Shown: piece by piece, positions 5,176 to 34,285 of the stretch
Numbering within the stretch: position 1 is the stretch's first letter
Layout: each line of letters begins with the position of its first letter
Assembly: GCA_963782055.1 (NCBI GenBank)
Contig: CAWAIF010000003.1
Span: 1,120,001-1,184,000 of the forward strand
Origin: an uncultured delta proteobacterium
Lineage (GTDB): Bacteria > Myxococcota_A > Polyangia > Polyangiales > Polyangiaceae
Direction of reading: 5' to 3'
DNA length: 64,000 nt
The notes under the pieces: generated by a model
Seen by the model: the letters and a program-made list of their open reading frames with translations, nothing else
Database searches by the model: none
What the model was told of the DNA's origin: nothing
Program-made: the position numbers and the translations under genes

Positions 5176-6225
5176 ATGCCTCGCGCCGCGCTCCGGATGC
5201 TCGCGTGCCTCGCGGCGGTCGTGCTCGCCCTCGCCGCCGGATGCTCCGCCGACTCCGGGCCGCCGCCCCCGCCCTACGCGAGCGCGTACCACAAGCCGCT
5301 GGTGCTGCCGAACACCGGGGCCGACACCGCCGACCCGCACTGCATCCTGTTCCAGGGCACCTGGTACCTCTACGCCACCAGCTCGCAGAAGAACCTGGAG
5401 GTGTGGACGAGCACCGACCTGCTCACGTGGAGCTACGGCGGCGTCGTGTGGCAGCCCACGCCGGGTACGTGGAACAATCTCTCCTCGACGGGGGTGTACG
5501 GGGCCTGGGCGCCCAGCGTGCACCAGGGCGACGACGGCGCCTTCTACCTCTACTACACGGCTGCGCTGCGCGTGGGCGTGGCCCGCGCCGCCACGCCGCT
5601 CGGGCCCTTCGCGGAGGTGCTCGACCACCCGCTGCTCGGCGACGGCCACGGCGGCGTGGGCGACGGCGTGCTCGTCGGGACCGGCCGCGTGGACCTGCCC
5701 AACGACTTCCAGGAGTTCGCCATCGACCCCTTCGTGCTGCGCACGTCCACCGGCGCGCGCTACCTCTACGCGGCGATCTACACCCCCATCAGCGTCATCG
5801 CCGCGTGGCCCATGACCGACATGAGCACCCTCGCGGCGAGCACGCCGACGATCGTCGGGACGCCCAACTCCTCGTGGGAGGGGGGCGTGATGGAGGGGCC
5901 GTTCGTCGTCGAGGAGGGCGGCAAGTTCCTGCTGACCTACTCCGGCAACCGCTACACGAGCGTCAGCTACGGGCTGGGCGTGGCGGTGGCGGACGACCCG
6001 CTCGGCCCCTTCACCAAGGACGACAACAACCCCTTCTTCGCGACGATGGACGCGCGCGGCATCTGGGGGCCGGGCCACCACAGCTTCGTCGATGGCGGGC
6101 ACGGCAACACGCTCATCTTCTATCACTCCAAGGCGAGCCCCGACCCGGGCGCCAACCGACAAATCCGCTTCGGACCGGTGACCTTCGGCGGGGCGGCCCC
6201 GGTGACCGTGCAGTTTCCGGGGTGA
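5176..6225 (+). CDS. Glycoside hydrolase family 43 lipoprotein
   Basis: Lipobox LAAGC; 'ADPHCI', 'WAPSV', 'AIDPFV', 'MEGPFV', 'GPGHHS' five-blade propeller motifs. Confidence 0.9.
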   Translation: MPRAALRMLACLAAVVLALAAGCSADSGPPPPPYASAYHKPLVLPNTGADTADPHCILFQGTWYLYATSSQKNLEVWTSTDLLTWSYGGVVWQPTPGTWNNLSSTGVYGAWAPSVHQGDDGAFYLYYTAALRVGVARAATPLGPFAEVLDHPLLGDGHGGVGDGVLVGTGRVDLPNDFQEFAIDPFVLRTSTGARYLYAAIYTPISVIAAWPMTDMSTLAASTPTIVGTPNSSWEGGVMEGPFVVEEGGKFLLTYSGNRYTSVSYGLGVAVADDPLGPFTKDDNNPFFATMDARGIWGPGHHSFVDGGHGNTLIFYHSKASPDPGANRQIRFGPVTFGGAAPVTVQFPG

Positions 6226-6238
6226 GCGGTCGCGGGCG

Positions 6239-6622
6239 CTACGCGTGCTTGTGGTACGGGGCCTCCCGCTTCTCCAGGGCCTCCAGCTCCTCCGGCGTCA
6301 GGACGATCGCGTCGTGGAACTCCACCGCGACCTGGTGCGTCCACAGCGAGATGCGCTCGTCGGGGAGCGGCTCGATGCGCAGCGTCTTGCCGGTGGCCAC
6401 GCGCGGTGTCTGGGCGTCGATGGTGACGTAGAGCTCCAGCCGCAGCTCGTCGCCCACCGCCCAGTCCGGCTTTCGAAGGAGCAGCAGCGCGCCGCCCTCC
6501 GAGAGATCGGCGATGAGGGCGGTGACCCGCGCGTCCGCGCCTCTGTCCACGTAGCTGGGGAAGCACGCCACCCGCCGCGGGGCCCGCCGGCGGTCGGAGC
6601 TGGGAGGAGCCTCGTCGACCAT
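6239..6622 (-). CDS. PilZ-domain protein
   Basis: RxxxR ('RRRAPR') and D-x-S-x-x-G ('DLSEGG') c-di-GMP motifs. Confidence 0.82.
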   Translation of the reverse strand: MVDEAPPSSDRRRAPRRVACFPSYVDRGADARVTALIADLSEGGALLLLRKPDWAVGDELRLELYVTIDAQTPRVATGKTLRIEPLPDERISLWTHQVAVEFHDAIVLTPEELEALEKREAPYHKHA

Positions 6623-6825
6623 GACTGGAGAGTACCCAGAAAGGTCGGTGTCGTCTCCCGCCACGGCGCGCCCTCTCCCGAGGACGATGACGTCCGAAAA
6701 CCGCGAGCCGCGGGCCGCGTAGCATGGCGCGAAGGCGAGCCGCGCCTTCGCGAGTCTCTGCTGGCCCCGGCGAGCGCGCCCACCGCTTGCGCCCGCGCGC
6801 GGCACGTCGCACCATCTCGGTCGGC

Positions 6826-7848
6826 GTGAGCGCATCGCTTCGTCACCTCGACAGCTACCAGCCGGTCCTCGCCGCGCTCCGTCGTGAAGGCGTGGACCCC
6901 GAAGGGCTGCTGCGCGAGCTCGGCGTGGACCCCGTGGCGCCGGTGACGCGCTCGCCGCGGCCGACGTCGCACATCGGCGTCGCGCTTCTGGAGCGCGCCG
7001 TGGCGCTGCGCGGGGAGGGCTTCGGCGCGCGCGCCGCCGCCACGCTCCGGCTGGATGCGCTCGGCGTCCTCGGTCTGGCGTGTCTCTCCGCGCCGACGGT
7101 GGGCGAAGCGCTCGAGCGCGCCCTGCGCTACCGCAGGCTCGTCTTCGACGCCGACGACTACGCCCTGGAGATCGAGGAGGGCTCCGCGACGCTCGTTCGC
7201 CGCCCGGTCCCCGCGGCGCTCGCGCGGACGCTCCCGCGCGGGGCGCGGGCGCTCGTCGAGCTGGGGCTGATCGAGCACCTCGTGGCCCTGCGCGAGATCG
7301 CGGGCGGACGCCTCGGCCCGCGGGTGGAGCTCCGCTTCGCGCACGCCGCCCCGCCGGACGGCGGCGCGGAGCTGCGCAGGGTCGCCGCGGCGCGCGCGCG
7401 CTTTGCGACATCGCGTCACGAGCTCCGCCTGCCGCGCTCCCTGCTCGCCCGCCCGACGCGTCACGGGCACCCGGCGATGGCAGCCTTCTTCGCCGACCTC
7501 GCGCGCGACCGACTCGCCGCGTCGGCAACCGCCGGCTCGGCGGCGTCATGCGTGCGTGCCTTTCTGGCGCGCGAGCTGCGCGGCGGGGCCCCCACGGCTC
7601 GCGCCGCCGCGCGCGCGCTCGGGACGAGCGACCGGACGCTCACGCGGCGCCTCGCGGCGGAGGGGACGACCTTCCCCGCGCTGCTCGACGAGGTGCGACG
7701 TGAGGCTGCGCTCGCCCTCCTTCGCCGCCAGGACGTGACACTCGCCGAGATCGCTTTCCTCCTCGGCTTCTCCGAGCCACGCGCCTTTCACCGCGCCTTC
7801 CGCCGGTGGACGGGTCGCACCCCGGGGCAGGTCCGCGCCGCGGGCTGA
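6826..7848 (+). CDS. AraC-family transcriptional regulator (start uncertain; ORF open from 6724)
   Basis: C-terminal 'ALGTSDRTLTRRLAAEGTTF', 'EIAFLLGFSEPRAFHRAFRRWTG'; N-terminal 'LGVLGLACLSAPTVGEAL'. Confidence 0.9.
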   Translation: MSASLRHLDSYQPVLAALRREGVDPEGLLRELGVDPVAPVTRSPRPTSHIGVALLERAVALRGEGFGARAAATLRLDALGVLGLACLSAPTVGEALERALRYRRLVFDADDYALEIEEGSATLVRRPVPAALARTLPRGARALVELGLIEHLVALREIAGGRLGPRVELRFAHAAPPDGGAELRRVAAARARFATSRHELRLPRSLLARPTRHGHPAMAAFFADLARDRLAASATAGSAASCVRAFLARELRGGAPTARAAARALGTSDRTLTRRLAAEGTTFPALLDEVRREAALALLRRQDVTLAEIAFLLGFSEPRAFHRAFRRWTGRTPGQVRAAG

Positions 7849-28660: not shown

Positions 28661-28734
28661 CGTAGTGGATGTGCCGCCGCGAAGGGTCACCGTCGGCTTC
28701 GGCGTCGGTAGGTTGGTTGGTGGCGAGCGACGAG

Positions 28735-29670
28735 ATGATCCGCGACACACAGGGCAAGCAGCGGGGTCGGGGGATGCTCGAGGAGACCTCTTGGCGGCGC
28801 GCGCGGCTCGCCGCGTGGCTCGCCGCGTGGCTCGCCTGCGTATCGTGCGCGGGAGCGGGCTCGTTCGCGGTGACGCCGGTGACGCCGGCGACGACCGACG
28901 ACCTGCTCTCGGTCTGGTGCATGCCCGGGGGCGGCGTCTATGCCCTCGATCGGCACGGCGGCGCCCACCCGCTCGAAGGGCGCGGGCCCCGAGTCGGCTG
29001 GGACGACGGCGGTCCGGTAACGGTCGCGGGCGGCCGACTCTACCAGGTGAGGCAGGGGCAGCTCCGGCGCTCCGACGACGGCGGCGCGCACTGGACGCCG
29101 CTGATGGTGACGGCGCCCGCGGACGTGCCGTACGGGCGCGCCAGCCTCCTGGCGGTCGCCGCGGGCGCGAGCGGCACGCCCCTGTTCGCGCTCGGTCGGT
29201 ACCTCGCGATCGGCAACAGCCTCGAGAGCGCTTACGTCTACCTCGTCCGCTCCGACGACGGCGGCACGTCGTGGTCGCGGGTGTGGACCGGGTCTGACGA
29301 GGGGCCGATGGGCTTGCTCGGCGGGCGTCACGGCCCGGGCGTCACGGCCGCGCTCGCCGTGTTGCCGGGGGGCGCGATCGCGCTCGGTGGCATGGACGGC
29401 TCCGTCCTCGTCTCGAGCGATGGCGGCCGCACGTTCGTCGCGCGGCCCACCCCGGCGAAGGCGGCCATCCTCGGCCTGTGGGCAGCACCGCGCGGCGCGC
29501 TCTACGGCGTCGGAGTCCGCGGCGCGATCGTCGTCTCCACGGACGGTGGCCGGACCTTCAGCGCTGCCAACGCCCGTGTCGCTTCCGATCTGTACGCCGT
29601 CACCGGCTGCGCCGGCCACGTGTGGATCGTCGGCGCCCACGGCGCGGCGCTCCGCCAGCGGCGACCTTGA
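28735..29670 (+). CDS. BNR/Asp-box (YCF48-like) beta-propeller protein
   Basis: Four Asp-boxes: SDDGGAHW, SDDGGTSW, SSDGGRTF, STDGGRTF; start uncertain. Confidence 0.75.
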   Translation: MIRDTQGKQRGRGMLEETSWRRARLAAWLAAWLACVSCAGAGSFAVTPVTPATTDDLLSVWCMPGGGVYALDRHGGAHPLEGRGPRVGWDDGGPVTVAGGRLYQVRQGQLRRSDDGGAHWTPLMVTAPADVPYGRASLLAVAAGASGTPLFALGRYLAIGNSLESAYVYLVRSDDGGTSWSRVWTGSDEGPMGLLGGRHGPGVTAALAVLPGGAIALGGMDGSVLVSSDGGRTFVARPTPAKAAILGLWAAPRGALYGVGVRGAIVVSTDGGRTFSAANARVASDLYAVTGCAGHVWIVGAHGAALRQRRP

Positions 29671-29775
29671 TGTCCTCCGCGTCTCGACGACTCCTGTTTG
29701 GCGCAGCACTCCTCGGCGCGGCGGTTCGTACGTCGCGTGCGGCGAGCACGCGGCGCTGCCCCCGCACGGTCCGCA

Positions 29776-29931
29776 TCACCGCGTGCCGGGTGACGGGGTC
29801 GCGGCGCTCCCAGCCGTCGCCGGAGCGGTCGTCGTGTGCTGGCGCCAGAGCATGTAGGTGCTCACCCCGCCGCCGACGAACACCAGGGCGACGCCGCCAA
29901 TGACCACCAGCAACACGCCGGCGATGATCAT
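29776..29931 (-). CDS. Possible 51-aa single-TM protein (below the ORF-track cutoff)
   Basis: ATG ATC ATC...TGA reading MIIAGVLLVVIGGVALVFVGGGVSTYMLWRQHTTTAPATAGSAATPSPGTR; could be a remnant. Confidence 0.35.
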   Translation of the reverse strand: MIIAGVLLVVIGGVALVFVGGGVSTYMLWRQHTTTAPATAGSAATPSPGTR

Positions 29932-30030
29932 GCGCCGAGGCTAGCTCCGCTCGTCGCGCCCGGGCAACGAGCATCGCCTGGCACGATTCGGCGTGGCCGA
30001 ATAGCGCACGCTGATCTAGAGTCCGGCCCG

Positions 30031-30306
30031 ATGAAAGCCCTGATCCTGATCGGTCTCCTGGCCGCGGTCGCGGCCGCGTGCAGCAGCACGTCCAGCCAAC
30101 CGGCCGGCGCCACCTGCTCCTCGAACAGCGAATGCGCCTCGGGCGAGTGCCTCGATCTGGCGGTGGTCAGCGACGGCGGATGCACCTCGGTGGGCAAGGC
30201 GTGCTCGAAGACCTGCCTGACCGACACCGACTGTGCGTCGCTGGGCCCCAAGTTCAAGTGCTTCGACGGCTGCGCAGGAACCAAATCGTGCGGGGCCACG
30301 CCCTGA
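30031..30306 (+). CDS. Small Cys-rich lipoprotein (91 aa)
   Basis: MKALILIGLLAAVAAAC lipobox; 'CSSNSECASGEC', 'CSKTCLTDTDC'. Confidence 0.75.
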   Translation: MKALILIGLLAAVAAACSSTSSQPAGATCSSNSECASGECLDLAVVSDGGCTSVGKACSKTCLTDTDCASLGPKFKCFDGCAGTKSCGATP

Positions 30307-30371
30307 GCCGCTCTGCGAGGAGCGTCGTGTTCTGCGTCCTCGAGAGGTGGACAGTCGCTTTCTGAGCGAGC

Positions 30372-30815
30372 TCAGCGTCGCGCAGCGTCACAGGCGCCGT
30401 CGACGCACACCGCCCGAAAGCTCTCGGCGCTCTCGGTCGGCTTGCAGAGGGCGTCGCACTTCGCGCACTTCACCTTCTTCGTCGCGCACTCGCCGCGCTC
30501 CCGCACGAGATCGACCTTGGTGATCGAGCGTGGCGGCACCGCGCAGCACGCGCAGCAGTCGGGGCTCGCGTTCGTCACGGTGCACTCGTCGTCGCGAGTG
30601 CACTGTCCCCCTCCACCTGGGTGGAGCTCGAGGGATGATGGATGCGGCAGCGGCGCGACCGCGGCGACCGCGGTCGCGGCGTCGACGGTCGCAGCGTCCG
30701 CCGAGCCGATGGATACGCTCATCGGCTCGGCGGGCCTAGGCTGGCACGCGATCAGCGTCGCCGAGAATGCGAGGAGCGAGGCGGGCGTGGCCCCGCTCGC
30801 AAGGCGCCATCTCAA
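30372..30815 (-). CDS. Cys-rich lipoprotein immediately downstream of the actin-like gene
   Basis: 'LLAFSATLIAC' lipobox; 'CTRDDEC...DCCACC...CAKCDALC...AVCVDGAC'; in-frame TTG at 30815 overlaps the actin TGA (or GTG at 30821); start uncertain. Confidence 0.6.
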   Translation of the reverse strand: MRWRLASGATPASLLAFSATLIACQPRPAEPMSVSIGSADAATVDAATAVAAVAPLPHPSSLELHPGGGGQCTRDDECTVTNASPDCCACCAVPPRSITKVDLVRERGECATKKVKCAKCDALCKPTESAESFRAVCVDGACDAARR

Positions 30816-32023
30816 GTGCACTTGTGGAGGACGACCGCCGGTCCCTGCTGCTGGTACTCCGCGCGCGTGATGTACATCGCGTCGAAGGTGCTGAGGCTCG
30901 CGAGGATGGACTCCCCGATGAAGACGGAGTTCGTCGCGTCGGCCGGCTGCACCACCTTTGTCGTCATCGCAGTCGGCGCCAGCGCCTTGACGCCCGCTTG
31001 CAGGCGCGCGCCGAGGCCGCGGTAGTGACCCAGGCGCCCGGCGATCACGATGTTGTTGTAGAGATCCTTCCGGATGTCGACGTCGCACTTCATGATGAAC
31101 TCGTAGACGAGCTTGTGGATCCCCTCCTGCTCCAAGCTGATTAACTGCGGCTCGAAGTACGCCTCCGGCGCCATGAAGCGCTCGGTGCCGACCGTGATGG
31201 TGCGGCCGCTGGAGAGCCGGAACGGACTGGCAGCGTGTTGTTCTTTCCTCGGATTCAGCGCGATGTAGCCGAACGTCTGGTCGAGACGTCGCTGGTCCGT
31301 CTCGTCGTTGGCGGGCACTCCGCGCGGGGCCTCGAGCGCCGACCAGCGCTTCAGGATGTCTGCCTCCCCGATGTCGAGCCTCAGCGCGGCGTGCGGCAAG
31401 GCGTATCCTTCGTAGATCGGCGCGACCCTCGTGATGTCGCGGTCTCCCTCGAGCACGACGCCCGTGGTCCGGCCCGAAGCGTACAGGGCGAGGACGGGCT
31501 CCTGCGCGACGTAGAAGGCCTGGGCACCAACCCCGTTGAAGATCGTGGTGGTCAGCCGCATCCGGACGGCCTTCGAGGTGAACAGTGGCTCGCTGACGAG
31601 GATGCGAGCGTTCGCGGGCGCCACCCCGAGCTTTCCAAGTACGTAGCGTACCAGCTGGCCGAACACTGCGAAGTTCGTGATGACCTGCTTCTGGATGGGG
31701 TACACGAGGCTGAGTTGTGCCCGGCGGGCGAGCGCGTCGTTCCCGAAGGCGACAGCGGTGCCGGAGCCCCTCGGCGCGCCGGCCACCGCCGGCACCACCA
31801 GGCGCGGAGCGGTGTCCCCGCCGATGCCCGCCTGGATCGTGTCGGAGTCGAGGGCCAGGATGACGTTGCGGACGGCGCCGTGCGGCGTCACCGGCCGCGG
31901 GCGCCCGATGGTGTTGGGTGGGAATGTCGGCGCCTGCACGACGGGAGCCGGCCCTGCGGAGGCGACCGCAGGCAGGGCAGTGACAGCGAGGGCGAGCAGG
32001 GCGAGGGTGGCGAGATGGCGCAT
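30812..32023 (-). CDS. Eukaryote-type actin homologue with N-terminal signal peptide (403 aa)
   Basis: Near-identical actin signatures LYASGRTTG, PIYEGYALPHA, ERF-x2-PEA-x-F, IMKCDVDIRKDLY, SILASLSTF, EY...GP...KC; GGAG RBS 5 nt before ATG; signal MRHLATLALLALAVTALPAVASA. Confidence 0.95.
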   Translation of the reverse strand: MRHLATLALLALAVTALPAVASAGPAPVVQAPTFPPNTIGRPRPVTPHGAVRNVILALDSDTIQAGIGGDTAPRLVVPAVAGAPRGSGTAVAFGNDALARRAQLSLVYPIQKQVITNFAVFGQLVRYVLGKLGVAPANARILVSEPLFTSKAVRMRLTTTIFNGVGAQAFYVAQEPVLALYASGRTTGVVLEGDRDITRVAPIYEGYALPHAALRLDIGEADILKRWSALEAPRGVPANDETDQRRLDQTFGYIALNPRKEQHAASPFRLSSGRTITVGTERFMAPEAYFEPQLISLEQEGIHKLVYEFIMKCDVDIRKDLYNNIVIAGRLGHYRGLGARLQAGVKALAPTAMTTKVVQPADATNSVFIGESILASLSTFDAMYITRAEYQQQGPAVVLHKCT

Positions 32024-32136
32024 CGGTGCTCCGGTTCGACGGACAGTGGGCGGCGGCATTCACCCCATCCTGGCGACATCGTACCCCACGACCACCGCGC
32101 CCCGCGCCGGAAAGGATGTATCCGAGGCCCAGGCCG

Positions 32137-32874
32137 TCATCCCCGCGAGCAACGCGCGGCGACGGCCTCCATCACCTCGATCGTGGACTCGACGAGCCAG
32201 AGATCGACGTTGGGGGTGCCTCCGTACAAGACCCCCTCGTCGTGGAGCACCAGGTACACCGGGGACTCGCCTGCGTCCCCGGGTCGGCGCAGGACACAGT
32301 GGAAGTCGGAGTCGATCCGGGCAACGGGAACCGCGATGGCCCCCGGACTCAGCTCGGGTGGCGGCTCGGAGAACTCGTCCAGCAGTGTCGCCAGCTCGTC
32401 GGAGAGCGCGCGGATCTCGTCCACATCACAGGTGACGAGATCCCTCCCGATGGCGAGGGATCCATGGCCCAGGAGCCTCCGGTGGCTCGGGGCGAGTCTG
32501 GCGCCGAGGCTACCTTCGAGGCGGTCGATCGCGGCAGCGTCGGCCGGCGTCCCCTCGCGGCGCAGCAGCTGGGCAACATCGCCGATGCGTGACCGAAGCG
32601 CATCCGCGTGTCCGGCCGTGCGCATCTGGTCCACCCACTGCACGGTGGCGGCCTCGAGTGCATCGAGGGACACCCCGGCGCCGAGCCGGGCGGCGCACTG
32701 CTGGGTGATGGCGTCGGGATCCCCAGCGGCGGCAGCGGCGTCTCGGGCCTGCGTCTCCAGACGGGCCATGCCGGCGGTCCCCGCGGCCCGACTCTCGGCC
32801 GCTCGTTCGGGCGACACGATCCCGGCTGCTGCCAGGAGGTCTGCCATCGACTTCTTCCTGCGCTCGTCGGCCAC
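32137..32874 (-). CDS. Protein with C-terminal SMI1/KNR4 (SUKH)-like domain
   Basis: 'PADAAAIDRLEGSLGARLAPSHRRLL' resembles the SUKH N-terminal motif; later 'VPVA...ESPVYLVLHD'. Confidence 0.6.
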   Translation of the reverse strand: MADERRKKSMADLLAAAGIVSPERAAESRAAGTAGMARLETQARDAAAAAGDPDAITQQCAARLGAGVSLDALEAATVQWVDQMRTAGHADALRSRIGDVAQLLRREGTPADAAAIDRLEGSLGARLAPSHRRLLGHGSLAIGRDLVTCDVDEIRALSDELATLLDEFSEPPPELSPGAIAVPVARIDSDFHCVLRRPGDAGESPVYLVLHDEGVLYGGTPNVDLWLVESTIEVMEAVAARCSRG

Positions 32875-33028
32875 GGGCTCGTCCTGACTTCAGGTCGCTG
32901 AGAGTGTGATGGCGTCCACCCCGAGGACGTGTGGGCGCATGGGAAATACTAGCGCGGTCGACCCGGCAGGCGAGGACGTTCCCGCGTACCATGAGGACCG
33001 CGTGGCAAACGGCAATGGGGAGCGATCG

Positions 33029-34285
33029 ATGAGCTGGCGAACGGTGGGCGGAGTGAGCGCGCTGGTCGCGGCGGCGCTCGGGGCGAGCTGCAAGCACCCT
33101 CCTCCCCCGGCTGCCGTGGACGCGGGGCCGGCGGCGAGCATCACGGCTGCGCCCGTCGCCACGCGCGAGTCGACGGCCAGCGCCGCGCCGCCGGTGCCGA
33201 CGCCTGCGGCCTCGGTGGCCCCCGCCACGCTGCCCGGGGACGCGGGCGCCGGAGCGTGCGCGCTCGTCTGGGGGCCGGCGAAGCTGGCGACGACGGGGCC
33301 GGTGGCGCTCGCGGCCACCGCGACCGGCGTCGATGTGGTGCAGAACGACAACGGGGCGGCGGTGCACGTGGCGTTCGCGCTGGGGAAGCTGGACCCGAAG
33401 GCGAAGCCGGTCGCGCCGCCCGCGCCGGCGGACGCTCGGCGCGTCTCGCGGCAGCCGTGCGCGCTCGCCGGGAGTGTTGCGTTCTGCACGGATCGGTCCG
33501 GCGGGGTGCACCGCGCGCCGGTCGGCGGGGGCGCCGGTCCAGTCGTCGGGCACGCGCGGCCGGGCGCGTGGGTGGCCGCGTCGCTCGTGGCGGGCAAGCC
33601 GGTGGTCGCCTTCCTGCGCGATCGCACGACGAGCGAGGGCAACACGCAGGAGGCGTACCTCGTCGACGCCGACGGCGCGGAGCAGCGGCTGTCGGAGGAC
33701 GGCAGCGGGGCAACGTTCGTGGCGCTCGCGCCGCGCGGGGAGGGCGCGATCGCGGTGTACGTCGACGCGCGCATGGCGATGTCGCCGGTGCACGCGCGCA
33801 CGGTCGCCGGGGCGAAGCCGGTGCTCGGCAAGGACGAGGTGCTCTTCATCGGCGGCAGCGCGGAGGCGACGACGCGCCTCGCGGTCGGCGTGCAGGCGGG
33901 CGGGCCGGCCTTCGCGCTGGTGCCCATCTCGCACGATCTGGCCTTCTCGCTCGCCATCGCGAGGATGGATGCCGGTCCCACGACGGACGCGCCGACGACG
34001 TGGTCGGACTACCCGAACGGGCTGGACCCGGCGCCCATCGCGGCGACGGCGGGCGCGAAGCGGGTGACGGTGGCCCGGGTGCGCCCGTCGGAGGCGCGGT
34101 TCGGCGCGCCGCGGGTGCTGGAGCTCGGACGCGTCGACGCGGGCGGCGGCTTCGCGCCGCTGGGCCTCGTGTCGACGCACGGCGCGGCGAGCCACGTGGC
34201 GATCGTGGAGGATCGCGGCGGAGGGATCGTGATCGGCTACACCGACGGCGCGGGGAGCTGGGTGGAGCGGAGGAGCTGCAAGTAG
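33029..34285 (+). CDS. Hypothetical beta-rich lipoprotein
   Basis: 'AALGASC' lipobox, Pro/Ala linker, beta-strand-rich body; strong GC3 bias. Confidence 0.7.
   Translation: MSWRTVGGVSALVAAALGASCKHPPPPAAVDAGPAASITAAPVATRESTASAAPPVPTPAASVAPATLPGDAGAGACALVWGPAKLATTGPVALAATATGVDVVQNDNGAAVHVAFALGKLDPKAKPVAPPAPADARRVSRQPCALAGSVAFCTDRSGGVHRAPVGGGAGPVVGHARPGAWVAASLVAGKPVVAFLRDRTTSEGNTQEAYLVDADGAEQRLSEDGSGATFVALAPRGEGAIAVYVDARMAMSPVHARTVAGAKPVLGKDEVLFIGGSAEATTRLAVGVQAGGPAFALVPISHDLAFSLAIARMDAGPTTDAPTTWSDYPNGLDPAPIAATAGAKRVTVARVRPSEARFGAPRVLELGRVDAGGGFAPLGLVSTHGAASHVAIVEDRGGGIVIGYTDGAGSWVERRSCK

Follow-up and report, generated by a model that had tools for sequence, protein, structure and literature searches.

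Conventional actin is a textbook protein whose native state needs bound adenosine triphosphate (ATP), a cation and dedicated eukaryotic chaperones; as set out in part of PMC5314930, globular actin (G-actin) requires ATP and a divalent cation to stay native, is irreversibly inactivated otherwise, and is not expressible in E. coli. Some bacterial genes are much closer to actin than to MreB or ParM, including BARP of Haliangium ochraceum, ActM of Microcystis, and two homologues that we call L006 (genome G195) and L005 (genome G381). BARP groups with eukaryotic actin, as does ActM, according to sections of PMC3035250 and PMC6906331. Such eukaryote-type actins have so far been treated as rare cytoplasmic curiosities. 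Here we describe an actin homologue encoded in a 64-kb window, by which we mean the whole stretch of 64,000 nucleotides analyzed (positions 1,120,001 to 1,184,000 of contig CAWAIF010000003.1, assembly GCA_963782055.1), from an uncultured member of the Polyangiaceae. We propose, with a probability of roughly 0.6, that the protein is an exported, nucleotide-free and functional pseudo-actin that serves as a binding module.

The gene and its features are listed below. Residues of the window protein are counted from the first ATG (415 amino acids), whereas substitutions carry the actin position.

30812..32059, minus strand: open reading frame of the actin homologue including the stop, 415 codons from the first ATG
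32029..32032, minus strand: ribosome-binding site GGAG, 5 nucleotides before the ATG of M13
31955..32023, minus strand: predicted Sec-type signal peptide MRHLATLALLALAVTALPAVASA, residues 13-35, with an A-S-A cleavage motif before G36
31865..31954, minus strand: proline-rich linker, residues 36-65, replacing the acidic N-terminus of actin
30815..31864, minus strand: actin-fold domain, residues 66-415, from PF00022, phmmer and AlphaFold2/Foldseek
31826..31855, minus strand: degenerate phosphate-1 loop ALDSDTIQAG, residues 69-78, from alignments to 4efh_A (HMMER, MAFFT)
31736..31774, minus strand: shortened D-loop region PRGSGTAVAFGND, about 7 residues shorter, seen as a gap against 4efh_A
31679..31702, minus strand: His73 sensor context YPIQKQVI, with E72Q, H73K and G74Q, from the alignments
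31490..31513, minus strand: catalytic Gln137 context YVAQEPVL, with I136Q, Q137E and A138P, from the alignments
31460..31486, minus strand: conserved LYASGRTTG, first wall of the barbed-end groove, from the alignments
31427..31450, minus strand: degenerate phosphate-2 loop EGDRDITR, residues 204-211, from the alignments
31388..31420, minus strand: conserved W-loop PIYEGYALPHA, 7/8 identical
31016..31042, minus strand: degenerate adenosine loop AGRLGHYRG, residues 340-348, from the alignments
30869..30922, minus strand: FIGES (W340F, G343E) followed by the conserved groove helix SILASLSTFDAMYI, from the alignments

Judged by its sequence and predicted fold, the gene product is a true actin homologue. 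The Pfam Actin profile PF00022 matched with an E-value of 2.4e-69 and 234.3 bits against a cut-off of 27, in two stretches that together cover profile positions 4-409. When solved structures were searched with phmmer, the best match was Acanthamoeba actin (4efh_A, E = 3e-80), and the best 60 of 160 significant matches were all actins (60/60). An AlphaFold2 model built from a 56-row alignment had a mean predicted local distance difference test (pLDDT) score of 88.8, and every 10-residue block from residue 61 onward scored at least 88, mostly above 90. The top Foldseek matches were G-actins, with template modeling (TM) scores of 0.91-0.94 (normalized to the target) and best root-mean-square deviations of 1.3-2.2 Å, the lowest being 1.3-1.5 Å. 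Superposition on G-actin had been suggested as a check in a preliminary description made from the DNA letters, and it predicts an intact four-subdomain actin fold. The window protein therefore shares family and fold with conventional actin (4efh_A, 1nmd_A and 6nbw_A; about 42-45% identity), and the two hardly differ in the barbed-end groove, W-loop, plug region and C-terminal helix. Unlike conventional actin, it has a predicted signal and a proline-rich linker, 21/24 of its nucleotide-site residues are replaced, and two further deletions (3 and 7 residues) accompany the shortened D-loop.

The preliminary description had claimed that the nucleotide-binding motifs are substituted throughout, and every replacement that it listed was seen in our alignments. 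Phosphate-1 changes from DNGSGMCKAG to ALDSDTIQAG (D11A, N12L, G13D, G15D, M16T, K18Q), phosphate-2 from DSGDGVTH to EGDRDITR (D154E, S155G, G156D, D157R, G158D, H161R), and the adenosine loop from SGGTTMYPG to AGRLGHYRG (G302R, T303L, M305H); IQA becomes QEP, EHG becomes QKQ, and WIGGS becomes FIGES at 30908-30922. K336 is also changed. The same description had placed these motifs within 30990..31864; phosphate-1 and the adenosine loop do fall inside that span, while FIGES lies just outside its 30990 end. Residues were counted against the canonical actin P0055, using lists of 24 nucleotide-site and 18 groove residues that follow general knowledge of actin structure and were not derived with a tool. 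Only 3/24 nucleotide-site residues are kept, compared with 152/347 at the other aligned positions (Fisher p = 0.002), consistent with the earlier claim that the canonical site is gone while the predicted fold is intact.

To place this count among relatives, we scored an 82-row alignment consisting of 73 of 149 non-self representatives (those of 330-480 amino acids, the other 76 being dropped as fusions or fragments), five homologues from the same phylum, three canonical actins and the window protein. None of these rows scores lower at the nucleotide site than the window protein, which shares the lowest value. An analysis that used no residue list, but instead all columns in which at least 60% of 56 diverged homologues keep the canonical residue, found D11, G13, G74, D154, G156, K213, E214, G302, R335 and G343 to be lost. 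All four actin tryptophans are also replaced (W79F, W86V, W340F and W356Y), each of which is kept by 61-86% of the diverged homologues. Taken together, we conclude that the protein is an actin-family member by sequence and predicted fold in which the phosphate-1, phosphate-2, adenosine and Q137/H161 motifs of the family no longer hold. It has the makeup of a pseudoenzyme, with catalytic and ligand residues gone and the predicted fold retained.

Conservation of the remaining protein is uneven. Overall identity to P0055 is 155/371, yet the barbed-end groove between subdomains 1 and 3 is identical at 17/18 positions (Fisher p = 2e-6 against the rest) and the plug region is kept at 10/13. The D-loop positions are kept at 3/13, with 6 deleted. 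An intact frame with conserved flanks had been noted earlier, and we find the flanks AG.GGD.APR, LYASGRTTG, PIYEGYALPHA and IMKCDVDIRKDLY kept in a 415-codon frame free of frameshifts. Homologues of similar divergence (about 150-165/362 identities) retain more of the site (12-15 residues) and less of the groove (7-13 residues), so that the window protein stands apart from them on both counts. The end branch leading to it measures 1.0 over all columns, compared with a median of 0.58; without the nucleotide-site columns the two values are 0.75 and 0.60. Because the branch shortens without these columns, part of the acceleration lies in the site. That the groove, W-loop and plug are retained while the D-loop and acidic N-terminus are lost suggests a protein that binds statically, by way of the main docking groove of actin.

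The N-terminus points to export. A start at 32023 (M13) is favored by the database gene call (P0002) and by the ribosome-binding site, which gives a protein of 403 amino acids that begins with MRHLATLALLALAVTALPAVASA, followed by the predicted cleavage and then GPAP. The putative signal consists of an n-region MRH, an h-region LATLALLALAVTALPAV with a 17-residue hydrophobic core, and ASA before the glycine, and its 19-residue hydropathy is 2.1. By hydropathy and motif heuristics, this layout agrees with a type I signal (charged n-region, h-region of 10-20 residues, small-x-small motif), and the signal peptide put forward in the preliminary description is borne out at that level by the Sec-type segment, the GGAG site and the A-S-A motif. 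Equally hydrophobic 19-mers occur in 25 segments (103/127,888 positions) across the six frames of the window. Since such segments are rare, a chance occurrence within the 50 residues before the actin domain is unlikely. The G+C content at third codon positions (GC3) is 0.58 in codons 1-12 compared with 0.78-0.90 downstream (0.78-0.89 in codons 13-62), and the value of 0.89 for codons 36-62 is coding-like. The structural model has a helix at residues 15-26 within an otherwise disordered N-terminus, with pLDDT below 50 over residues 7-52. The mature protein would carry a net charge of +7; a basic mature protein contrasts with acidic actin.

We found that export signals and eroded nucleotide sites are associated across homologues. 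Seven of the 82 rows were signal-positive by the heuristic, with site scores of 3 (the window protein), 3, 4, 7, 9, 11 and 17; the last of these looks like a eukaryotic gene-model artefact. The median score was 7/24 for the signal-positive rows and 15/24 for the other 75 (rank test p = 4e-4), and the four lowest scores among the 82 rows were all signal-positive. For a separate census, each prokaryotic species was represented by one genome, and a pattern scan of these genomes returned 76 loci. We examined the 35 loci on contigs longer than about 5 kb and dropped 6 for in-frame stops, leaving 29 loci from Myxococcota-type metagenome-assembled genomes (MAGs), cyanobacteria, Crocinitomix, Aureispira, gammaproteobacteria and Asgard archaea. 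The majority of these lack a signal and have an intact phosphate-1 loop. Among the 29 plus the window protein, the 3 signal-positive proteins scored 3, 3 and 6, compared with a median of 19 for the other 27; the census overlaps the 82-row set by two proteins. The remaining 41 loci are short contigs or fragments, many of them in isolate assemblies, and are probably eukaryotic contamination. Short loci of this type include L023-L030, L036, L037, L047, L059, L061, L068, L072 and similar ones. In the Devosia marina, Shimia sediminis, Alcanivorax quisquiliarum and Pararhodobacter zhoushanensis assemblies, a near-canonical actin lies on low-coverage contigs of 0.5-2 kb, for which eukaryotic contamination is the most likely source.

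The signal-bearing homologues resemble the window protein in several respects. A Crocinitomix MAG encodes NOQ71148.1 (P0143, identical to L035), in which a predicted export signal precedes a full actin domain with a site score of 3/24. This gene (5920-7113, plus strand, contig WTCE01000015.1) is annotated "actin, cytoplasmic 2", its product has 209/362 identities to canonical actin, and it lies between a lipoprotein-like gene and a gene for a 603-amino-acid secreted protein. A second exported-type homologue of the window's phylum, L009 in genome G386, scores 7/24 and shares G13D and G302R with the window protein. L009 (1495-2700, minus strand; G386:C13) and L097 have the signal MRRLSPLVPPLRCLVLLAAALWSLQPAPTRA followed by an acidic linker rich in proline, glutamate and aspartate; in L009 the D-loop region is deleted, and the gene adjoins that of a 2523-amino-acid protein ending in a membrane anchor. 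A divergent homologue from a gammaproteobacterial MAG (L071, 6/24) has a signal-like N-terminus ending in SILVMCVMMIAATANA and then AP. The same MAG carries a near-canonical actin, L046, with 258/362 identities and a site score of 16/24. Three metagenomic signal-bearing proteins, P0171 (9/24), P0262 (4/24) and P0196 (11/24), likewise have eroded sites. The metagenomic protein P0264 (421 amino acids, 10/24) has an N-terminus MPYTRRDVIKTLGLG of the twin-arginine translocation (Tat) kind, and such a signal would export P0264 already folded. An acidic residue at G13 is common to several of the signal-bearing homologues and the window protein. They are 29-36% identical to it and conserve the groove less well (7-14/18), and the genes adjoining the Crocinitomix and G386 homologues differ from those beside the window gene. 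A full-text search of a limited literature collection returned no paper describing exported or signal-bearing actin homologues.

The window protein is an orphan. Searched with phmmer, 1.84 billion cluster representatives yielded 13,058 matches at E ≤ 0.001. Leaving aside the protein itself, none of the best 150 stood clearly nearer to it than ordinary actins do, at about 43% identity across the full domain; higher identities were limited to partial stretches, with 45% over some 270 residues and 53% over 123. Searches of 40 related genomes, 6 of them from the same genus, turned up no homologue, and a scan of genome contigs with this single protein gave no close relatives. An actin-like match at E ≤ 1e-10 occurred in 7/401 genomes of the phylum, this one included. 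In an 82-row tree (LG+C20), which was star-like, the window protein fell outside a group of five signal-bearing proteins with a Shimodaira-Hasegawa-like approximate likelihood ratio (SH-aLRT) support of 94. In a 36-row tree (LG+G4, all columns) it joined the signal-bearing proteins (SH-aLRT 99), and this support vanished when the nucleotide-site columns were removed. The approximately unbiased test on 36 rows rejected neither a grouping with cytoplasmic actins of the same family (p = 0.14) nor one with the signal-bearing group (p = 0.52), and a comparison over 14 diagnostic columns, split 2 against 1, was uninformative. The window protein, L006 of G195 and the P0055 group have in common a local signature LEQEGIHK...DLYNNIV. 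Signal-bearing actins may have arisen more than once; those seen here are from two genomes of the window's phylum and one MAG each of the Bacteroidota and the gammaproteobacteria, along with several proteins of metagenomic origin.

How does this protein differ from described families? Loci of the Kofleriaceae, Polyangiaceae, Nannocystis and cyanobacteria encode cytoplasmic-type bacterial actins, which share its patchy distribution. In contrast to the window protein, the cytoplasmic-type homologues examined have no signal and keep 18-23/24 site residues, and BARP is likened to them by description only. L006, from the same family, is 44% identical and keeps 18/24; L005 keeps 19/24 and a Kofleriaceae homologue 22/24. 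Another actin homologue, encoded by L008 (1489-2841, minus strand; G142), carries acidic ADGKGE repeats as an 80-residue N-terminal extension; it lacks a signal, and its site is eroded in part (9/24). By language-model features, the nearest clusters are those of ACTL8, ACTL7A and Arp7, with scores of 0.95-0.96. Some divergent actin-like and actin-related proteins are static subunits with weak or no ATPase activity. Unlike the window protein, ACTL8, ACTL7A and Arp7 occur only in eukaryotes, in the cytoplasm or nucleus, and have no signal peptide. We also considered the NCBIfam family syringactin (NF040575), which the C-terminal 115 or so residues match at E = 7e-22. Membership was rejected, as the score of 77.7 bits lies below the cut-off of 300 and every actin homologue tested matches equally weakly; a full-text search of the same literature collection returned no paper on syringactin.

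Sec substrates cross the membrane unfolded and enter a compartment without ATP. We propose that a Sec-type signal peptide would send a full actin fold out of the cytoplasm, and that canonical ATP binding and hydrolysis have probably been lost in this pseudo-actin. Four new aspartates on the phosphate loops (G13D, G15D, G156D and G158D) would occupy the former nucleotide-cation pocket, and new arginine and histidine residues (D157R, H161R, G302R and M305H) would pair with them, tying the two halves of the protein together as ATP-Mg does. The charges would be complementary where the phosphates, cation and adenine normally sit, and such a side-chain plug could let the fold survive without ATP. 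On its sequence, the product most likely binds partners as a static module, whether periplasmic, on the cell surface or released into the medium, and a dynamic nucleotide-driven filament is not likely. Its ligands could be a bacterial envelope partner, copies of itself, or the ligands of the groove in eukaryotic grazers or prey.

Several points weigh against this proposal. The salt-bridge plug is pure inference, as is the earlier suggestion that the new aspartate, arginine and glutamate side chains fill the cleft in place of ATP-Mg, and export is derived from a hydropathy and cleavage-motif heuristic. In-frame GTG codons at V41 and V57 might start a signal-less protein, neither of them with a good ribosome-binding site. 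The alignment that drives the AlphaFold2 model consists of nucleotide-binding actins, and the model is uninformative on ligand-free stability. The residue lists reflect general background on actin structure, and the groove set includes hinge and core positions, so that its conservation may be partly structural. The signal-positive rows are few, partly related and in two cases double-counted, and the rank tests therefore overstate independence. Homologues from Aureispira (6/24) and Leptolyngbyaceae (7/24) have eroded sites and no signal, while the signal-bearing P0196 retains 11/24. Site loss had been offered earlier as independent support for export; the association across homologues stands, but these exceptions indicate that export is neither necessary nor sufficient for site loss. 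Finally, an orphan without close homologues offers no ratio of nonsynonymous to synonymous substitution rates, and the indications that the gene is maintained are indirect, namely the contrast of 17/18 groove to 3/24 site residues and coding-type codon statistics.

A narrower form of the proposal is that the protein is an actin mimic aimed at eukaryotes, in which the groove would capture ligands from amoebae, fungi, nematodes or other grazers or prey. These ligands could be actin-binding proteins, the pointed end or D-loop of eukaryotic actin, or actin-directed small molecules, and the outcome would be a disturbed cytoskeleton or sequestered ligands. The phylum has a predatory lifestyle. What is kept in the protein (groove 17/18, W-loop 7/8 and the IMKCDVDIRKDLY segment) and what is lost (nucleotide site, D-loop and acidic N-terminus) would suit a mimic, and near-identical short contigs are present in a soil metagenome. 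Profilin, gelsolin and cofilin families were not found in the organism's own genome by searches run without a positive control, so no home-grown partner of this kind is evident. The Foldseek matches also include G-actin in complex with the myxobacterial macrolide chivosazole A (6qri), which presumably binds the barbed-end groove. However, a Sec signal by itself provides no evident route into the eukaryotic cytosol, the 64-kb window contains no injection-system genes, toxin domains or biosynthetic clusters, and conservation of the groove is poorer in the other signal-bearing homologues. We regard the mimic as possible but doubtful. The same tentative standing applies to the broader idea that there is a scattered, undescribed class of extracytoplasmic, nucleotide-independent bacterial actins whose window member is an extracellular mimic capturing eukaryotic groove ligands.

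We also considered a cytoplasmic, nucleotide-independent actin-like scaffold, in which the apparent signal would be uncleaved or untranslated. The eroded, signal-less proteins of Aureispira and Leptolyngbyaceae provide a precedent, 27/30 of the scored genome-encoded bacterial actin homologues have no signal, and the GTG codons downstream offer alternative starts. Against this, the strong GGAG-N5-ATG at M13 runs straight into the hydrophobic segment, GC3 is of the coding type throughout the signal and linker, the database gene call begins at M13, and a segment of a kind this rare in the window is followed by A-S-A. A cytoplasmic scaffold therefore appears unlikely to us.

Alternatively, the gene could be the functionless, decaying relic of a horizontally acquired actin, its frame still open because stops are rare in DNA of 73% G+C. 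A relic would fit with an orphan on a long branch that is missing from all 40 relatives, including those of the same genus, with a region that is non-syntenic within the genus, and with the long spurious open reading frames common in the window. When an 11-kb query was compared with five same-genus genomes, scattered matches of about 70% identity all fell on other genes; none covered the actin gene, and there was nothing notable over its immediate neighbors. With no conserved neighborhood in these five genomes, the boundaries of an insertion are not definable. Decay is difficult to reconcile with such strongly non-uniform conservation, with 415 codons free of frameshifts, and with a very confident AlphaFold2 model. 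The G+C content by codon position in the actin domain (0.65/0.45/0.90) is similar to that of adjacent genes and typical of expressed genes here, and a dead gene would not be expected to have a well-placed ribosome-binding site, to encode a signal peptide or to overlap the start of the next gene with its stop. We consider a relic quite unlikely. Persistence of nucleotide binding through a non-canonical pocket, or binding of a different nucleotide or a phosphorylated sugar, is very unlikely, for although S14 is kept, both phosphate loops are unchanged in backbone length and several polar or charged cleft residues could hold some ligand, the four glycine-to-aspartate changes put negative charge and bulk at the phosphate positions, D11, K18, Q137, D154, H161, K213, E214, G302 and K336 are all changed, and an exported protein would meet no ATP in the periplasm or medium.

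The setting is that of a resident gene. The window belongs to contig 3, a contig of 7.0 Mb in a 7.58-Mb genome, and genes in the surroundings encode an extracytoplasmic function (ECF) sigma factor, a BNR-repeat protein, aspartokinase-homoserine dehydrogenase, uppS, cdsA, gdh, miaA and a serine/threonine kinase. These ordinary chromosomal neighbors, together with native-type G+C content by codon position, indicate a resident bacterial gene and not eukaryotic contamination. We found no transfer RNA gene in the 64-kb window, no promoter- or terminator-like site at 29800-33200, and no integrase or transposase family among the window reading frames scanned. In mapping to three soil-metagenome runs of one study, three contigs of 151-155 nucleotides from run X1 fit the window at 99% or more; the remaining pieces were short, partly fitting and from other organisms, and none of the pieces spans the actin gene. 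The X1 contigs 31937-32091 and 32746-32896 are identical to the window. A 151-nucleotide X1 contig (depth 2.2) has an A>G change at 31098 that turns F321 into serine, the canonical actin residue, although at such depth this may be an error.

Directly downstream of the actin gene is a second gene on the same strand:

30372..30815, minus strand: cysteine-rich lipoprotein gene, 147 amino acids, with a TTG start that overlaps the actin stop (TTGA) and a lipobox LIAC

The 147-amino-acid lipoprotein has an alanine- and proline-rich linker of about 50 residues and 11 cysteines with a cysteine-rich C-terminal domain, and neither Pfam nor NCBIfam has a family that it matched. Domains weakly related to the cysteine-rich one were found in 2/6 same-genus genomes (G001 and G006), both of which lack the actin gene, and there is one more in the organism's own genome. 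The overlap suggests that the actin and lipoprotein genes are possibly co-translated. A complex prediction for actin residues 61-415 with residues 25-147 of the mature lipoprotein scored 0.00; run without controls, it gives no evidence either way. On the opposite strand, a convergent gene at 30031-30306 encodes a 91-amino-acid lipoprotein, MKALILIGLLAAVAAAC, with a different cysteine-rich domain whose sole match was Colipase-like and sub-threshold (E = 0.02). Upstream and on the same strand as the actin gene is a gene for a 245-amino-acid protein (32137-32874), the C-terminal half of which has a sub-threshold match to SMI1/KNR4 (SUKH-1; E = 0.041, 121/125 profile positions). SUKH-1 members are often immunity proteins of toxin systems. 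The actin gene lies within a stretch of exported-protein and lipoprotein genes of unknown function (28669-34285), which includes the BNR-repeat protein, with a signal or lipobox, and a 459-amino-acid secreted protein. Within it, same-genus DNA from the five genomes matched only part of the 459-amino-acid gene, differently placed each time.

If the window protein is indeed an exported, nucleotide-free pseudo-actin, it would reveal, as a natural actin able to fold once Sec has exported it, how this fold becomes ligand-independent, and a stable actin scaffold that can be expressed in bacteria would become possible for structural and binding work. The recurrence of export signals in several phyla, linked to site loss, points to extracytoplasmic use of the actin fold. 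Should the groove still recognize eukaryotic partners, this would add a novel form of cytoskeletal mimicry to the interactions between microbial predators and prey, and if the protein truly acts as a mimic, it would give bacteria a new way to interfere with or exploit the eukaryotic cytoskeleton.

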